A DNA stretch of 11,607 nucleotides. It comes from a virus (lineage: Duplodnaviria > Heunggongvirae > Uroviricota > Caudoviricetes). The position numbers are program-made. Where the stretch lies: the IMG/VR virus record IMGVR_UViG_2850808358_000010, one strand, 5' to 3'. Of this stretch, positions 1-6,000 are shown piece by piece. Positions within the stretch are counted from its first letter, which is position 1. Every line of letters starts with the position of its first letter.

Positions 1-3000
1 TTAACGCGTATTTTTCAGCGACTCCTGTGCAAAATACGCTGTTGCTTTTTTTAATATATCTCGCTCAAGGCGAGCTTCATTTAACGCCTTACGCAGTTGC
101 AGAATTTCAGATTCCAGTTCAGCCACCGTGCGGGAACCAGGAGTACCGAGCCCTTTTCTGGCGGCGGTAACCCATTGTCCTAAAGTGCCTTCAGGAAGGG
201 ATAATCGGGAAGCGCCTTCACTGATCGAAAGTTGATTTTCAAGAACCGTTCTGACAGCTTCGGCTTTGAACTCTTTAGAGTAACGTTGGGTTTTTCTGCT
301 CATTATTAGCTCCTTCTGATGCCATTCTATTTCAGGAAGGAGTGTCCGTTAAACTCAGGCTACCTCAGCCTGCCAGCTCCTTACGGGTAGTCGGCTTCGG
401 CTTTCTTCCCCTTCCGGGTGCAACAGATTTTCCTGACATGTCAAATCCTGAAATTTTTAATTTCGCGGGTGTAAAAATTTGACGGGGCGGGCAGTCCGGA
501 AGACGTCAGGTCACAGGGATTTGCCCCGCCCCTCCCTACAAGTGAGAATAATTATCACCTGATTCGTTCGCGCGCTGTTTTCGCTTTATGGCAGGGCCAG
601 CACAGACTCTGCAGGTTGCTGTCTGCGTCTGTTCCGCCATGCGCTTTCGGGATGATGTGGTCGACGGTTTTCGCCTCGCTCACCACACCGACACGCAGAC
701 ACAACTGACACAGACCTTTATCGCGCTTCAGAATACGGGCACGAATCACCGTCCATTTTGAGCCATAGCCACGCTGGTGGCGGCTCAGTCCGCGCTGGTG
801 CTGCACCCAGCCTTCACCGCGATGTTTATCGCAGTAACCCGAACTGTCTGTGGTTGTACCTGCACATCCACGCTTACGGCAGGCACGTGGGATTAGTGAT
901 GGCATAAATACCTCATACCCTGCGAAATGTTTACCACGATAAAAAGGCTACTTAATGCACTGAGTGCGGATATACTCCTGTGCCCCTTCCAGTTGCATCT
1001 GCATCGTCATCAGCCGCTCTCTGAGGGTGAAATAATCCCGTTCAGCGGTGTCTGCCAGTCGGGGGCTGGTTGCATTATCCACGCCGGAGGCGGTGGTGGC
1101 TTCACGCACTGACTGACAGACTGCTTTGATGTGCAACCGACGACGACCAGCGGCAACATCATCACGTAGAGCATCATTTTCAGCTTTCGCATCAGCTAAC
1201 TCCTTCAGGTATTTTGCATCGAGTGCAGCAACATCACGCTGGCGTATCTGCATGTCAGTAATGATTGCGGTCGCCTGGTTGAGTTTTTCCTTCACATTAT
1301 CGCGCTGCTCTTTGTAGGTAATGGCGTTATCACGGTAATGATTAGCAGCCAATGACAGGCAGGCGATGATGCAGATAACCAGAGCGGAGATAATCGCGGT
1401 GACTCTGCTCATTGCTGCCCCACAAACAGACTTCACGCTCAATCTCACGACGGGTCATCAGCCCTTTCCATTGCTTACCGCCAGCATATGTCCAGCGACG
1501 TAGCTGGTCACATGCGCCTTTGATATCGCCCTGGTTTATTTTGCGAAGAAGCGTCGATGTTCTGAAATTGCCAGCGCCCACGTTGTAAACGAACGAGTAA
1601 AGAGCGCCGCGCGTTGTTTCCGGTATATCGACTTTGATGTACGGGTTAATTTGTCTGGCGACAGTGGCAAGGTCTTTATTCAGGAGAGCTTTGCATTCTG
1701 CTTCGGTATACGTTTTACCAGGCATGATGTCTTTTCCGGTGTGTCCGTGACATACAGTCCATACACCAATGATATCTTTGTATGGTATGTAGCTGACACC
1801 TTCCAGACCATCGTTACCACCTGGGCCAGTGATTAACACAGATGCTATAGCAACAGCCCCGCCACCAATAGCAACTGCAACAGCCTTGCGTAATGATGGC
1901 GACATTATTCACCTCTCGCAGCCTTACGCTTATCTTCTCTTATTTTGAAATACAGATTCGTCAGATAAGTCAGAAGCCCCAGAAGCAGACTTCCCAGCAC
2001 ACCAATCGCAGCCCACTGTGACGGACTGACCTGATCCAACCACTGCAAAAACCAGTAGCCGGCACTGCCGGCGGAGGTGCCGTAGGCAATGCCTGTTGAT
2101 ATTTTTTCCATCTGATACATATCCCGCCCCCGACAGACCTGTGCTATCGGAAAGAAAAAAGGCCATCAGCAAAACTCTGATGGCCTGAATCACCTTTACC
2201 AATATTGTATGAAAAAACACGCACGTCTAATTGACAATAATTTTCATTTCCATTAAAAAAGATCACGTAGCATTCTTAATTCATGAGGAACTTTACCCGC
2301 CAGCAATCTGAGTAGCGAAAGCTGTTCATCCCCAATGTTTTTGCTGGCGGGTCCTTTTTTCTACGGTCCTCCTCCCCGGAGGGGCATTTCATTATTTTTC
2401 TAATCATTACTGGTGAGAAGGCGGAAGAAAAAGCCAGTTCTTCGCCCCTAAATAACAGCATGATTCCAGTCCATGCAAAATCTGATTTCCAGCTCACACA
2501 TACCGAGCACTGTACAAAAAACCGCCAGCCAAGGCAGTTAAGAGTGTGTTCCCGGGTTTGCTTAGAATATTTTGTAAGTTGTCCGAAGAGATATTTACAA
2601 CACCAGAATGATGCATTATCAGTCCCCTGCCAGAGGTTCACTACGTAACCTGACCGACAATGCACCATTCTGGTGCTGAAAAAAGAGCACTGGAACTGCA
2701 ACAAAACAACATCACAGAACAGGAGATGGTAAGGAGTCAGACATTCCCACACAATATTGTGTCAGTGCAAATAACAACCTTCGTCTCAAATCTCGCTGGA
2801 GCGGGCAGCGGGAATCGAACCCGCATCATCAGCTTGGAAGGCTGAGGTAATAGCCATTATACGATGCCCGCATATGGTGCCGACTACCGGAATCGAACTG
2901 GTGACCTACTGATTACAAGTCAGTTGCTCTGCCTGCTGAGCTAAGTCGGCGCTGGCCCACCACCGAGGACTCGAACCTCGCACCGTCAACTTAGAAGGTT

Positions 3001-6000
3001 GATGCTCTATCCGGATGAGCTAGTGGTGGTTGGTGGCCCTTGCTGGACTTGAACCAGCGACCTGGCGATTATGAGTCGCTCGCTCTGACCAACTGAGCTA
3101 AAGGGCCGGAGGCAGAATAATAACCATATGTCATCACATCTGCAAACTCATCTGACCACCAGCACGTTTAACGTCCTGTGCCGTTTCTGTGTGGCGTAGT
3201 AACCACTCTTAACAGGATATTCAACTTTTTACGATCGTAAAGTTTTCGGAAAAAATTTTTAAAACCGCATCAACCGCTCCACCAGTTGCTCTTTACGGGC
3301 AACGATCCACCCGTGTTGCTCCAGATAAAATTTAAACCGTTCCAGAGTACATACCATCGCATCGGCGGGTACCTTTTCCGTGAACTCAACCTGACCGTGT
3401 TTATCGAAGTGGCTCAGTAATGCGCATCCATCATTTTCGATAGATGTGTTTTGTGCCGCTGGTGGCTGTTTCTGGTTGAAATAACAGTCTTCCAGTTTTT
3501 CGAACACTTCCCACGCCTGATCGGTTTCGAGCATTTTGGCGTGACGGGCTGCGCCACGTTCTGTCCAGAGGATGAGGGAGCGAACGTTACGGGCAATTTT
3601 CACAGAAACTCTTAAAGAGTTTTCGTTCTTCAACTCTCGTAACGCATCACCTTCTATCAGGAAAAAATGTTTACCTTCTATAAACCGTTCTTTGTTTCGA
3701 TTGAAATTGTTTGTCAAACGCTGGCGCTCTGTTCCGTACAAATCAGCCAGCAGCTCTGTTGTCATGACAGGAAGATGGTTATGCGTAAGTGACGGAAGTT
3801 TTTCAATAGACGTGCGATTCATAGACATGTCCTTTCGAATATTTTGATTTACCCCTTTTGAGAGGGTGACCGGGCGCTCAAAACCGTCGAAAGTCGGCGG
3901 GCGTATTTCCATTGCTGGTATTGTATTAGCCGCACACCCGGTCATAAACCAAGAATTCTGGACACAAAAAAACCACATGGCTATCGGGTGTGGATACCGC
4001 TTTCGAGGTGTTTTGAGCACCGCGGGGAAATGTAAACTGCAAACCTGAAACTGTCAACACCGTCAGGTTCCAATCATCGGGTGGTGAGACGCACAGGGTT
4101 GGAACTACCGGGAAACCGACCGGCGAGCTTTTCAGCTCCCCCATGCGCCCCACCATAATTCAGATGTGCGCGTGCATACGACAATAAAAAACACGCTCGC
4201 GGCGTGTGTCTGTCGCGGTCTCTATCCGGGGTTCCAATCCCGACGCCAGATTTTGCTGGCGCGTGAGGAATATAGCCCCGGACAATGTGTCTGGTCAAGC
4301 ACCTACATAATTCGTTCTACGTATCTGTCCATCTCCAGCCTGATATCAAGCATCATCAACATGCCATCAATAACCCCTTCCGCTTTCTGCAGGCGCTTGC
4401 CAATACAGGTATCCGAACACCCATGTTTCCGTGCCAGACTCATAAAAGTCATTCCACCTACGTAATAATCCACCAGCAAATCGTGCAAATCCTGATTTTT
4501 CTTGTTCAACCGGGCCATACAGCCACAAATTATCATTGCATCATCATCAGAACACTGAGGGCGTGATTTCACTTTCGACGGAATTAACCCTTTAAAACCA
4601 GCAGCGATCGACGCCCAGGATACATCTTCATGAGTGTTTGCAGCCCAAGCCCCCCACCGTTCCATAACCTGCTGAATATCACGCGCCATCGTTATCACCT
4701 GTGATTTCGTAAATCTTCACGCCCAGTCGCCCACCAGGAACGAGCTGACCGCGCACAATATTGATTTCATCAAACTGCTCGTCGTCTATGAGTAGTCCGG
4801 CATGCGTCAGCGCATCCAGTGGTGCTTTCAGGATATTGTCCAGGTCACGACGGCGCTTATCCGGTGGCTCTGCAATAATCTTTATCGCCAGCCTTCCGGA
4901 CTAATGCCGATCAGTTAAGGATCAGTTGACCGATCCAGTGGCTGTGTAAGAATCCGGAAACGCTCACTCGTTTCCGGATTTTTTTATGCACATTGGACAG
5001 GCTCTTGATCTGGTATCCCGTTACGATTCTCTGCGTAACCCACTGACTTCTCTGGGGGATTACCTCGACCCCGAACTCATCTCTCGTTGCCTTGCCGAAT
5101 CAGGTACTGTAACGCTACGCAAGCGCCGTCTTCCCCTCGAAATGATGGTCTGGTGTATTGTTGGCATGGCGCTTGAGCGTAAATAACCTCTTCACCAGAT
5201 TGTGAATCGCCTGGACATCATGCTGCCGGGCAATCGCCCCTTCGTTGCCCCCAGTGCCGTTATTCAGGCCCGCCAGCGCCTGGGAAGTGAGGCTGTCCGC
5301 CGCGTGTTCACGAAAACAGCGCAGCTCTGGCATAACGCCACGCCGCATCCGCACTGGTGCGGCCTGACCCTGCTGGCCATCGATGGTGTGTTCTGGCGCA
5401 CACCGGATACACCAGAGAACGATGCAGCCTTCCCCCGCCAGACACATGCCGGGAACCCGGCGCTCTACCCGCAGGTCAAAATGGTCTGCCAGATGGAACT
5501 GACCAGCCATCTGCTGACGGCTGCAGCCTTCGGCACGATGAAGAACAGCGAAAATGAGCTTGCTGAGCAACTTATAGAACAAACCGGCGATAACACTCTG
5601 ACGTTAATGGATAAAGGTTATTACTCACTGGGACTGTTAAATGCCTGGAGCCTGGCGGGAGAACACCGCCACTGGATGATACCTCTCAGAAAGGGAGCGC
5701 AATATGAAGAGCTCAGAAAACTGGGTAAAGGCGATCATCTGGTGAAGCTGAAAACCAGCCCGCAGGCACGAAAAAAGTGGCCGGGACTGGGAAATGAAGT
5801 GACAGCCCGCCTGCTGACCGTGACGCGCAAAGGAAAAGTCTGCCATCTGCTGACGTCGATGACGGACGCCATGCGCTTCCCCGGAGGAGAAATGGCGGAT
5901 CTGTACAGTCATCGCTGGGAAATCGAACTGGGATACAGGGAGATAAAACAGACGATGCAACTGAGCAGGCTGACGCTGAGAAGTAAAAAGCCGGAGCTTG

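Follow-up and report, generated by a model that had tools for sequence, protein, structure and literature searches.

A four-tRNA cassette in a defective lambdoid prophage, with a putative promoter of its own and a probable role in supplying tRNAs for over-used codons

The stretch of DNA analysed here (the window, 11,607 nucleotides) carries four tightly packed tRNA genes on its minus strand. They probably make up a self-contained, self-promoted cassette, or 'moron', in the late-leader region of a defective lambdoid prophage, and provide tRNAs for codons that phage genes and other imported genes over-use. A four-tRNA cassette is a known kind of phage cargo, and the finding is real and largely ordinary. 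The element that houses it is a decayed lambda-like prophage riddled with insertion sequences, as in Shigella and EIEC: IS3-family and IS4 elements disrupt the prophage around the array.

ARAGORN places exactly four tRNAs in the array, all on the minus strand and all with an encoded CCA: tRNA-Ile2 (slot 1, anticodon CAT, 3031..3107, 77 nt), tRNA-Arg (slot 2, TCT, 2953..3029, 77 nt), tRNA-Thr (slot 3, TGT, 2875..2950, 76 nt) and tRNA-Gly (slot 4, TCC, 2797..2871, 75 nt). The Rfam tRNA model RF00005 (gathering score 29) recovers the same genes at 56-70 bits (70.5 bits for tRNA-Ile2) and E-values between 1e-10 and 1e-14. Each folds into a canonical cloverleaf with the features of a bacterial elongator tRNA, namely a 7-bp acceptor, D, anticodon and T arms, a 7-nt anticodon loop with U33 and a score above the curated thresholds. 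The spacers are, in order, A, GC and TAT (1, 2 and 3 nt), shorter than every one of the 11 tRNA-tRNA spacers (6 to 116 nt) in three K-12 operons. These observations bear out the original prediction, which had described four packed, CCA-encoding minus-strand tRNAs with exactly these spacers, set more tightly than in chromosomal operons. As the spacers are so short, RNase P cleavage at each 5' end would leave 3' trailers of only 1-3 nt, which exonucleases may then trim to the encoded CCA.

The CAT tRNA is identical to K-12 ileX at 69/77 positions, to metT/U at 54/78 and to metZ at 48/78, and RefSeq/PGAP annotates it as tRNA-Ile. Its acceptor stem (GGCCCTT/AAGGGCC, with A73) contains the pairs C4:G69 and C5:G68. 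E. coli TilS uses pairs 4:69 and 5:68, and C4:G69 with C5:G68 are its identity pairs, whereas tRNA-Met has U4:A69 and A5:U68 (PMC11947777). The suspected likeness to Ile2 is thus upheld: by its sequence this is an Ile2-type tRNA and a predicted lysidine-dependent AUA decoder, which host TilS would have to lysidinylate before it could read AUA. The Arg tRNA has a phage-specific 'argN-type' body. Its acceptor stem, CCACCAC/GTGGTGG, is Watson-Crick throughout and opens with the C1:G72 pair that had been singled out earlier; discriminator G73 as well as A20, C35 and U36 are present.

To judge from its sequences, the array is a chimera whose Ile2 and Arg body derive from the ileZ-argN lineage of Stx phages and whose Gly and Thr were copied from host genes. 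Slot 1 is 74/77 (96%) identical to Stx-phage ileZ and 90% identical to ileX. Slot 2 shares 83% (64/77) with Stx argN (TCG), 84% with the 'Lys' (TTT) of sister arrays, 73% with host argU and 60% with Stx argO. tRNA-Gly matches K-12 glyT at 75/75 positions and tRNA-Thr matches thrU at 74/76; the two Thr differences, U16C and U20C, both lie in the D-loop (AGCAGGCA in the window, AGTAGGTA in the host). The cassette was probably built from two older pieces, a promoter-Ile2-'slot 2' unit common to the Stx-phage ileZ-argN cluster and a Thr-Gly unit copied from host thrU and glyT. Thr-TAT-Gly pairs also occur as arrays of their own, followed by the hairpin that lies downstream of the window's array.

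The array has close counterparts among known systems. The ileZ-argN-argO cluster of Stx phages 933W, Sakai Sp5 and 2851 lies, like the window array, between the Q-pR'-tR' region and the late genes, in the same orientation, and has the C1:G72 argN body. In phage 2851 the argN-body gene follows Ile2 by 1 nt, as it does in the window, and a homologous promoter-like element (TTGCAG/TTGCAA-17-TATTAT) is likewise found 9 nt upstream of the cluster. However, slot 2 has anticodon UCU in the window and UCG in the Stx phages, the window has host-derived Thr(UGU) and Gly(UCC) instead of argO (Arg-UCU, with an argU-like body), its spacers are 1/2/3 nt rather than the 9/13 nt of Sakai, and no stx genes lie downstream. 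The CAT-Lys(TTT)-Thr-Gly arrays of E. coli prophages (e.g., phage PhiR47_1 and PPompW-type prophages) have the same architecture, gene lengths, 1/2/3-nt spacers and promoter position, and 93-94% identity over the array. Their slot 2 differs from the window's Arg: it reads UUU, position 33 is an unusual C and the discriminator is U73. Their Thr is usually unmodified thrU (U16/U20) where the window has C16/C20. The host operon thrU-tyrU-glyT-thrT(-tufB) encodes Thr(UGU) and Gly(UCC) 97% and 100% identical to the window's and in the same order, but 209 nt apart (8+85+116 nt) instead of 3 nt. We rejected a fragment of this operon as the source of the array: Thr and Gly have no tyrU between them, neither thrT nor tufB is present, and the flanking sequences bear no relation to those of the operon. 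The genes are prophage cargo, as had been proposed.

Of 5,426 complete E. coli genomes, 603 carry a member of the array family. The Arg version, present in 10 of the genomes, is rare in E. coli but multi-copy in Shigella flexneri. All four sequences recur unchanged in 19 contigs of an IMG/VR sample, in which the Lys variant with the same spacers predominates (66 contigs). Three arrays each are found in S. flexneri SFBU1023 and E. coli ECMA0423.

The four tRNAs would add to host isoacceptors that are encoded in single copy and low in abundance, those for AUA, AGA(/AGG), ACA and GGA. These codons are over-represented in prophage genes and in other imported A+T-rich genes. Codon usage in one prophage that carries an identical array (10,048 codons) was set against that of core genes from one 50-kb region of K-12 (10,999 codons). 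The most enriched codons were AGG (9.6x), AGA (6.8x), ATA (4.1x), ACA (3.1x) and CGA (2.7x), the last being the codon read by the alternative slot-2 anticodon UCG. Enrichment of GGA was modest (1.8x, rank 12/61), and a rank-sum test on the four cognate codons gave p = 2.3e-4. Codon supplementation is well supported by these counts, and the array may benefit translation. The original prediction had tied supplementation to late-gene demand; the counts fit supplementation, but the excess is not confined to late genes and extends to early genes and a cargo gene. There is a precedent in the ACA bias reported for the Thr(UGU) of phage SfI (PMC3636060). The Asn(GUU)-Thr(UGU) tRNAs of SfI, Sf6, ST64T and P21 occupy the same niche downstream of Q, with the same ACA-bias rationale (PMC3636060), although their bodies are unrelated to those in the window. 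The Gly tRNA, being identical to glyT, adds dosage only.

Codon supply leaves two features unexplained, the exact U16C change in Thr and the odd Lys(UUU) that replaces Arg in the sister arrays. The array might instead, or in addition, serve counter-defence, by providing replacement or cleavage-resistant tRNAs against immune nucleases such as PARIS AriB or HEPN proteins, e.g., HepS. We consider this unlikely, if still the best of the alternatives. The isoacceptors targeted by AriB are Lys UUU, Thr UGU and Asn GUU, with tRNA-Thr(UGU) a prime target; cleavage occurs at U36AAUC|A41 and was 'significantly impaired' by U16C, and a resistant tRNA of T5 has C16 (PMC12409363). tRNA-Thr, including the TGT isoacceptor, is also cleaved by HepS of Gifsy-1, a nuclease that responds to lambdoid J proteins as its trigger (PMC13043305). 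The window's Thr departs from thrU only at U16C and U20C, and this C16/C20 allele is present in three array architectures. The slot-2 Lys(UUU) of the sister arrays, with C16 and UAAGUU at 36-41, lacks all three published AriB determinants, and other lambdoid phages (SfI) carry at the same locus an Asn(GUU) and a Thr(UGU) that likewise lack them.

Against this, slot 2 in the window is Arg(UCU) and not Lys, and Thr positions 36-41 still read UAAUCA as in host thrU, without substitutions at U39 and A41. All four anticodon loops are those of the host, so nuclease evasion by loop mutation does not apply, and Gly is unchanged from glyT. Ile2, Arg(UCU) and Gly(UCC) lie outside the reported PARIS and HepS targets (PMC12409363, PMC13043305), U16C was assayed in tRNA-Lys rather than in tRNA-Thr, and the C16/C20 allele may reflect one ancestral event spread by recombination. 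The PARIS-neutralising tRNA-Lys/Thr/Asn variants of T5 resemble the window's array in the targeted Thr(UGU) isoacceptor and in C16 of the D-loop (PMC12409363). They belong, however, to a virulent phage that encodes a large number of tRNAs; in the window, U39 and A41 of Thr are unaltered, and the array contains neither a Lys nor an Asn tRNA. A search of the window revealed no tRNA nuclease or other defence system. The counter-defence role raised in the original prediction is thus reduced to one specific signal, Thr U16C, which makes the case weaker than that for codon supplementation but not empty.

The prophage setting bears on when the cassette would be expressed. Q lies upstream of the array and holin, lysozyme and Rz lie downstream, all on the same (minus) strand. 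The antiterminator Q (4303..4698; Pfam PF06530, 2.4e-52; PHROG 79) is of the Stx-phage (Sakai Sp5) type, 81% identical to Sakai Q over 124 aa, and its C-terminal tail is missing. An antirepressor module (3259..4298), identified by Rfam gathering-level matches, a promoter and terminator scan, Pfam and PHROG, is inserted between Q and its pR'. It comprises a promoter-like site (4298-4269), c4-a1b1/IsrK (4275-4186) with its terminator (4207-4191), C4 RNA (4160-4077), a second promoter-like site (4057-4029), sRNA-Xcc1 (3943-3860) and ant (about 3822-3259; ORF6N PF10543, PHROG anti-repressor 8.6e-85). Beyond it, a pR'-like segment (3199..3241) contains the last codons of a Sakai-type Q and the late promoter region, with a putative -35 TTTACG and a putative -10 TATCCT. 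This segment aligns with the Sakai Sp5 stretch directly 3' of Q (610-660 of the compared region); the PR' TSS has been mapped in Sakai (PMC7547250). Because this homologue is directly upstream, the array is in the late leader. The earlier placement between Q/pR' and the lysis genes holds for pR', whereas Q itself lies about 1 kb from the pR'-like segment, with the antirepressor/C4-RNA module between. Comparison with related sequences places a deletion junction at 3186..3187, where about 38 nt were lost, including the hairpin and T-run terminator that normally separates the tRNA module from the pR'-like segment; two related sequences keep CTTAAACCCGCCGATGAGCGGGTTTTTTTATACCTGAA at this site, and a third has the same deletion as the window.

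Downstream of the array, about 115 nt from tRNA-Gly, is a long conserved hairpin (2594..2682, an inverted repeat of about 27 bp; dG -50.8 kcal/mol, z = -5.7). It travels with Thr-Gly pairs: diverged homologues lie 3' of Thr-Gly arrays, and the stem is kept in five sequences. A weaker terminator-like hairpin (2539-2520) and a strong intrinsic-terminator-like one (2160..2186; -18.6 kcal/mol, z = -3.2) follow, the latter just 5' of the holin gene (1905..2120) that starts the lysis cassette. Lysozyme (1905-1342) and Rz (1448-948) complete it (Pfam set PF04971/PF00959/PF03245 for the three genes).

The array has its own putative sigma-70 promoter (3117..3145, minus strand), with -35 TTGCAG (3145-3140), a 17-nt spacer and -10 TATTAT (3122-3117), joined to the first tRNA nucleotide by the 9-nt G+C-rich discriminator TCTGCCTCC. 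The hexamers occur at a fixed offset in 13 non-redundant diverged upstream types, with a mean score of 7.85/12 against 4.33 +/- 0.58 over offsets 0-159, roughly 6 sd above the other offsets. A homologous element is located after tR' in Sakai Sp5, the Stx2a phage in which a primary TSS for the tRNAs was located by dRNA-seq (PMC7547250). The conserved upstream part of the module also holds a Chi octamer, GCTGGTGG (3156..3163, tRNA strand), which recurs in several diverged upstream types.

It had been predicted that the array would be strongly expressed only by Q-mediated readthrough, and on the strictest version no tRNAs are made from it in the lysogen until Q antiterminates transcription from pR'. 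Their position between the pR'-like segment and the lysis genes, all in one orientation, agrees with this. The tRNAs of SfI/P21-type phages directly abut the tR' hairpin and have no promoter of their own, so such a mechanism does occur elsewhere. In the window it is highly improbable. The conserved promoter, for whose Stx2a-phage homologue a TSS has been mapped, and the survival of intact arrays in IS-ridden prophage remnants both speak against it. With the terminator between pR' and the array deleted, transcription from pR' would also run into the tRNAs without any modification by Q. The array is probably not purely Q-dependent, as conservation and the Sakai homologue suggest that its promoter is active in this copy. 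The putative TTGCAG-17-TATTAT promoter would drive transcription of the cassette in the lysogen. Once the prophage is induced, genome amplification and the pR'-like promoter a short way upstream would add to this expression.

That the array is a passively captured host fragment or a decaying, functionless relic is scarcely credible: Gly and Thr are identical or nearly so to host genes and the surrounding prophage is broken by IS elements, but the host operon context is gone, Ile2 and slot 2 are phage-lineage genes, the four sequences recur unchanged between contigs and in multiple copies per genome, and selection has left its signs in the conserved promoter and in compensatory acceptor-stem changes between slot-2 variants (A3:T70 vs G3:C70).

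Codon supply by a self-promoted cassette is thus the preferred reading. As the prophage is defective, phage growth can hardly profit from this copy, and any benefit would have to fall on the imported genes of the host or be historical.

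Four tRNA genes are found on the minus strand exactly at the positions of the original prediction, as called by ARAGORN, and the Rfam tRNA model scores them at 56–70 bits (gathering score 29). In transcription order, they are a CAT tRNA (slot 1, 3031–3107), tRNA-Arg-TCT (slot 2, 2953–3029), tRNA-Thr-TGT (slot 3, 2875–2950) and tRNA-Gly-TCC (slot 4, 2797–2871). Their cloverleafs are canonical, CCA is encoded in all four genes and the spacers are A, GC and TAT. As the 11 spacers in the three K-12 tRNA operons compared range from 6 to 116 nt, this spacing of 1, 2 and 3 nt is indeed tighter than that of host operons. 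The predicted C1:G72 pair of the Arg tRNA lies in an acceptor stem CCACCAC/GTGGTGG, with discriminator G73. ARAGORN names the CAT tRNA "Met", which is a mere default label for this anticodon. Its body resembles ileX (69/77 identity) rather than elongator (54/78) or initiator (48/78) tRNA-Met, and PGAP annotates it as tRNA-Ile in RefSeq genomes. It contains C4:G69 and C5:G68, the major identity elements of E. coli TilS (PMC11947777). This agrees with the earlier view of an Ile2-like tRNA.

Comparison of the individual tRNAs indicates where they came from. The Gly tRNA is identical to K-12 glyT (75/75), and the Thr tRNA differs from thrU (74/76) only by U16C and U20C, both in the D-loop. The CAT tRNA matches ileZ of Stx phage 2851 at 74/77 positions. 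The Arg tRNA is 73% identical to host argU and 60% to Stx-phage argO, which rules out that it is a copy of either; its body is shared with Stx-phage argN (TCG; 83%) and with the "Lys" tRNA (TTT; 84%) in the same slot of phage PhiR47_1. By these identities to host and Stx genes, the array is a chimera, in which a phage-lineage pair of Ile2 and slot 2 is joined to near-exact copies of two host genes. A fragment of a chromosomal operon is not indicated: the host operon thrU-tyrU-glyT-thrT holds both source genes, whereas the array matches the host in sequence for these two genes only and lacks tyrU, thrT, tufB and the host flanks. The TAT spacer was rejected as a trace of host origin, as it is derivable from the base following thrU and the two bases preceding glyT, and three bases are too few. 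No description of this composite origin was found in the literature searched.

tRNAs after the antiterminator gene Q are a long-known feature of lambdoid phages, exemplified by ileZ-argN-argO in Stx phages and by Asn/Thr tRNAs in SfI, Sf6, ST64T and P21. The array is homologous to the Stx cluster in position, promoter, Ile2 and slot-2 body, but the cluster's defining argO is absent and Thr and Gly stand in its place. Searched for the slot-2 T-arm pattern, IMG/VR yielded at least 120 stretches, whose layouts were called by local ARAGORN. Among the matches listed, CAT-Lys(ttt)-Thr-Gly arrays with spacers 1/2/3 were found in at least 66 contigs and CAT-Arg(tct)-Thr-Gly arrays with the same spacers in at least 19; other layouts, including the Stx-type CAT-Arg(tcg)-Arg(tct), were fewer. 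All four tRNA sequences equal those of the window in 19 of the 19 Arg-type arrays listed. Among 5,426 complete E. coli genomes, 603 contained the four-slot array and 10 the window's version (≥99% identity). Exact matches in species-representative genomes were confined to Escherichia and Shigella, a restriction that is a lower bound because the scan used an exact 22-nt pattern. The window is most closely related to S. flexneri and to E. coli strains that are EIEC-like; three arrays, two of the Arg type and one of the Lys type, are present both in S. flexneri SFBU1023 and in one E. coli genome. Although the window's array is routinely annotated in RefSeq, a literature search found no paper describing it.

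Anticodons vary on fixed bodies in this family. The C1:G72 slot-2 body was seen with UCU, UCG and UUU (IMG/VR loci L009–L128, e.g., L098 and L108; PhiR47_1, L008, 2658–2734), and the acceptor-stem differences between these variants are compensatory. The UUU form invariably has C33, with a variable position 32; U33 is near-universal in tRNAs. In some genomes (H73, H74), slot 2 lacks a PGAP annotation. Three IMG/VR loci (L020, L023 and L123) hold solitary 78-nt tRNAs whose acceptor stem and T arm resemble those of slot 2 but whose anticodon is TAT ("Ile"), preceded by A33. In at least five arrays (e.g., L051 and L109), slot 3 is a thrU body with TTT for TGT (G35 to T, plus A26G), so that ARAGORN calls it Lys. 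Here, too, the anticodon has changed while the body stayed fixed. In the literature searched, we found no description of anticodon variation on the slot-2 body (UCU, UCG, UUU, UAU) or on the thrU body (UGU to UUU).

The window is an IS-ridden prophage remnant, with an IS3-family element (1–370), an IS4 that separates the Q region from the replication genes (about 4986–6314), an IS600-like element (about 8364–9627), a phage integrase (9668–10867), an autotransporter beta-domain gene fragment at the window edge (11188–11607) and an HNH endonuclease gene after Rz (905–555). Antiterminator Q (4698–4303, minus strand; PF06530) is 81% identical over 124 residues to Q of the Sakai Stx2a prophage and lacks the C-terminal tail of the latter. 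Directly after Q lies a module of the P1-immI/Gifsy-IsrK type (3259–4298, minus strand). On this strand, it comprises a promoter-like site (4298–4269), c4-a1b1 targets and isrK (4275–4186, terminator 4207–4191), a C4 antisense RNA (4160–4077), a second promoter-like site (4057–4029), an sRNA-Xcc1 match (3943–3860) and an ORF6N antirepressor gene (about 3822–3259). Beyond the antirepressor stop, a pR'-like segment (3241–3199, minus strand) is homologous to the last codons of Sakai Q and the late promoter region. This suggests that the antirepressor module was inserted between Q and its pR', and it places the array in the late leader, as had been proposed. The site at 4298–4269 was rejected as pR', since the window Q lacks the Sakai tail and the Sakai Q-end/pR' sequence is found at 3241–3199 instead; it more probably drives the inserted C4/ant module. 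A comparative paper on pR' does not mention tRNAs.

In two loci that represent the common context of the array (L103 and L113), a hairpin and T-run, AAACCCGCCGATGAGCGGGTTTTTTT, lie between the pR'-like segment and the tRNA module. A deletion of ~38 nt (junction 3187/3186) removes this terminator in the window and in one compared locus (L101). Downstream of the array, a weaker (2539–2520) and a stronger (2186–2160) terminator-like hairpin on the minus strand precede the holin gene and would halt unmodified polymerase before the lysis genes. The region 2752–2276 is treated as non-coding leader: its ORF (158 aa) was rejected as a gene, having no Pfam, PHROG or PADLOC match, being unannotated by PGAP in an identical relative and containing hairpins.

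The same region holds a long hairpin (2594–2682, minus strand; ~27 bp, dG -50.8 kcal/mol, z -5.7) that is single-copy, unannotated and ~115 nt downstream of tRNA-Gly. It was flagged by the microRNA and plastid matches of a permissive Rfam scan of 2100–3300, which were themselves spurious. Diverged homologues (74–78% identity) occur in ~140 E. coli genomes. Each of the four that were inspected belongs to another lambdoid prophage, where it follows the tRNA-Gly of a two-gene Thr-TAT-Gly array by an equal distance. Five sequences preserve the stem, in which both bases of some pairs have changed, and a conserved ORF is absent. The hairpin may act as a terminator-like element, stabilise the 3' end or be cut by RNase III. 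As four-slot arrays differ downstream, a conserved module ending exactly at the Gly 3' end had been considered; this was revised, since the window's downstream type shares the hairpin with two-gene Thr-Gly arrays.

The array appears to have a promoter of its own. CAT-led arrays have 13 non-redundant upstream types, among which flanks and spacers differ. Nevertheless, a TTGCAG-like hexamer, a gap of 16–18 nt (mostly 17), TATTAT and a G+C-rich stretch of ~9 nt up to the first tRNA base are kept in all 13. When sigma-70 hexamer pairs were scored at every offset, the mean at offset 9 was 7.85/12, compared with 4.33 ± 0.58 for offsets 0–159, and for 7 of the 13 types no other site within 160 nt scores as high. 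In the window, the hexamers lie at 3145–3140 (-35) and 3122–3117 (-10) on the minus strand. Host stable-RNA promoters have this layout, with a G+C-rich discriminator that follows the -10 and immediately adjoins the tRNA. The Sakai Stx2a prophage carries the homologous TTGCAG-17-TATTAT-CCTGCGCCC-ileZ downstream of its tR' hairpin, and in this phage Sy et al. mapped a primary TSS driving the tRNAs (PMC7547250). The conserved promoter and its Sakai homologue leave the expectation that the tRNAs are strongly expressed only upon Q-mediated readthrough unsupported for the CAT-led family. In SfI/P21-type phages, by contrast, the Asn-Thr tRNAs adjoin the tR' hairpin without a promoter of their own, and the readthrough model fits. 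We also observed five Chi octamers (GCTGGTGG) in the 11.6 kb, compared to 0.34 expected from shuffles (773–780 and 3458–3465, plus strand; 3156–3163, 4470–4477 and 7207–7214, minus strand). The one at 3156–3163 has the orientation of the tRNAs and falls within the upstream portion of the module that is conserved; several diverged types of array have it as well.

To assess codon supply, one prophage with an identical array (E. coli FDAARGOS_944; 48 intact CDS, 10,048 codons) was compared with 34 K-12 core genes (10,999 codons). Enrichment was highest overall for AGG (9.6x; read weakly by Arg(UCU)), AGA (6.8x; Arg(UCU)), ATA (4.1x; Ile2), ACA (3.1x; Thr(UGU)) and CGA (2.7x; read by the alternative slot-2 anticodon UCG); GGA, read by Gly(UCC), was enriched 1.8x (rank 12 of 61). 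The cognate codons AGA, ATA, ACA and GGA thus rank 2, 3, 4 and 12 (rank-sum p 2.3e-4), in line with the proposed codon demand. The excess is shared by early and late genes and is stronger still in the ipaH cargo gene, so the proposed specificity for late genes did not hold. This relative is an ipaHb-carrying prophage, and its ipaH (L129, 39761–41587) has 19.8 AGA and 11.5 ATA per thousand. In K-12, each of these isoacceptors has a single host gene, or two in the case of Ile2; with such low copy numbers, one to three arrays per genome shift dosage substantially. We consider that the array is probably a self-promoted, codon-supplementing tRNA cassette. The same codon-supply reasoning has been published for the Thr(UGU) tRNA of phage SfI (PMC3636060).

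Counter-defence had also been suggested. As a generic evasion by loop mutation this is unsupported, since the anticodon loops of all four tRNAs are those of the host and the Gly tRNA is glyT itself; the "anticodon loop mutation" idea of an eLife 2023 paper, which does not treat temperate phages, is inapplicable for the same match of four loops out of four. A PADLOC search of the window found no defence system. What stood is a more specific signal in the Thr tRNA. Cleavage by AriB, the PARIS nuclease that targets tRNAs Lys UUU, Thr UGU and Asn GUU, is abolished by U39A, inhibited by A41C and "significantly impaired" by U16C, and C16 is present in the resistant tRNA of T5 (PMC12409363). The window Thr, which differs from thrU only by U16C and U20C, retains UAAUCA, and the PARIS signal in the window, limited to this one tRNA of four, is suggestive. 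Among the matches listed, the C16/C20 allele occurs in 19 of 19 Arg-type arrays, two Lys-type arrays and one two-gene Thr-Gly array, with a U16/C20 intermediate in two further arrays. The slot-2 Lys(UUU) of the sister arrays has C16 and UAAGUU (G39, U41) and thus lacks all three AriB determinants. In SfI (L139, 739–894), the Asn(GUU) and Thr(UGU) tRNAs downstream of Q have bodies unrelated to host genes; with UAACCU and UAAGCG, respectively, at positions 36–41 and A at position 16, they too lack the published determinants.

Pooled across the lambdoid after-Q locus, the tRNAs include exactly the three AriB targets, in versions that lack the determinants (sister Lys; SfI Asn and Thr) or carry a resistance change (window Thr U16C). 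Another nuclease, HepS of Gifsy-1, is triggered by lambdoid tail-tip proteins and cleaves tRNA-Thr (PMC13043305). The PARIS papers do not discuss temperate-phage tRNAs, and no description of the coincidence of array tRNAs with PARIS determinants was found in the literature searched. On these sequence patterns, it is conceivable, though rather doubtful, that lambdoid after-Q tRNA clusters serve no less as modular, self-promoted cassettes against anticodon nucleases than as codon supplements. In that case, slot 2 would be a nuclease-insensitive C1:G72 "chassis" whose anticodon is swapped by point mutation (UCU, UCG, UUU, UAU), the thrU-derived slot 3 would likewise be switchable to UUU, and the window array would represent the Arg-anticodon state of the cassette with a PARIS-hardened Thr. 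A minority reading, which we regard as unlikely, is that tRNA-cleaving immunity is also countered by the Thr allele and by the array family as a whole. If it were true, the use of tRNAs against PARIS-type immunity would extend from T5-like to temperate phages, and slot-2 switching would be a natural tRNA re-assignment on a fixed scaffold.

The array is a widespread E. coli/Shigella prophage element that combines a phage-lineage pair with host-gene copies, and the locus is of modest importance. With its apparent own promoter of the stable-RNA type, it could alter tRNA supply in the lysogen as well as after induction. Shigella and EIEC genomes contain up to three copies, which increases the gene dosage of AUA, AGA, ACA and GGA decoders. 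As these codons are strongly over-used in imported genes such as ipaH, the cassette could aid the expression of virulence and prophage genes.
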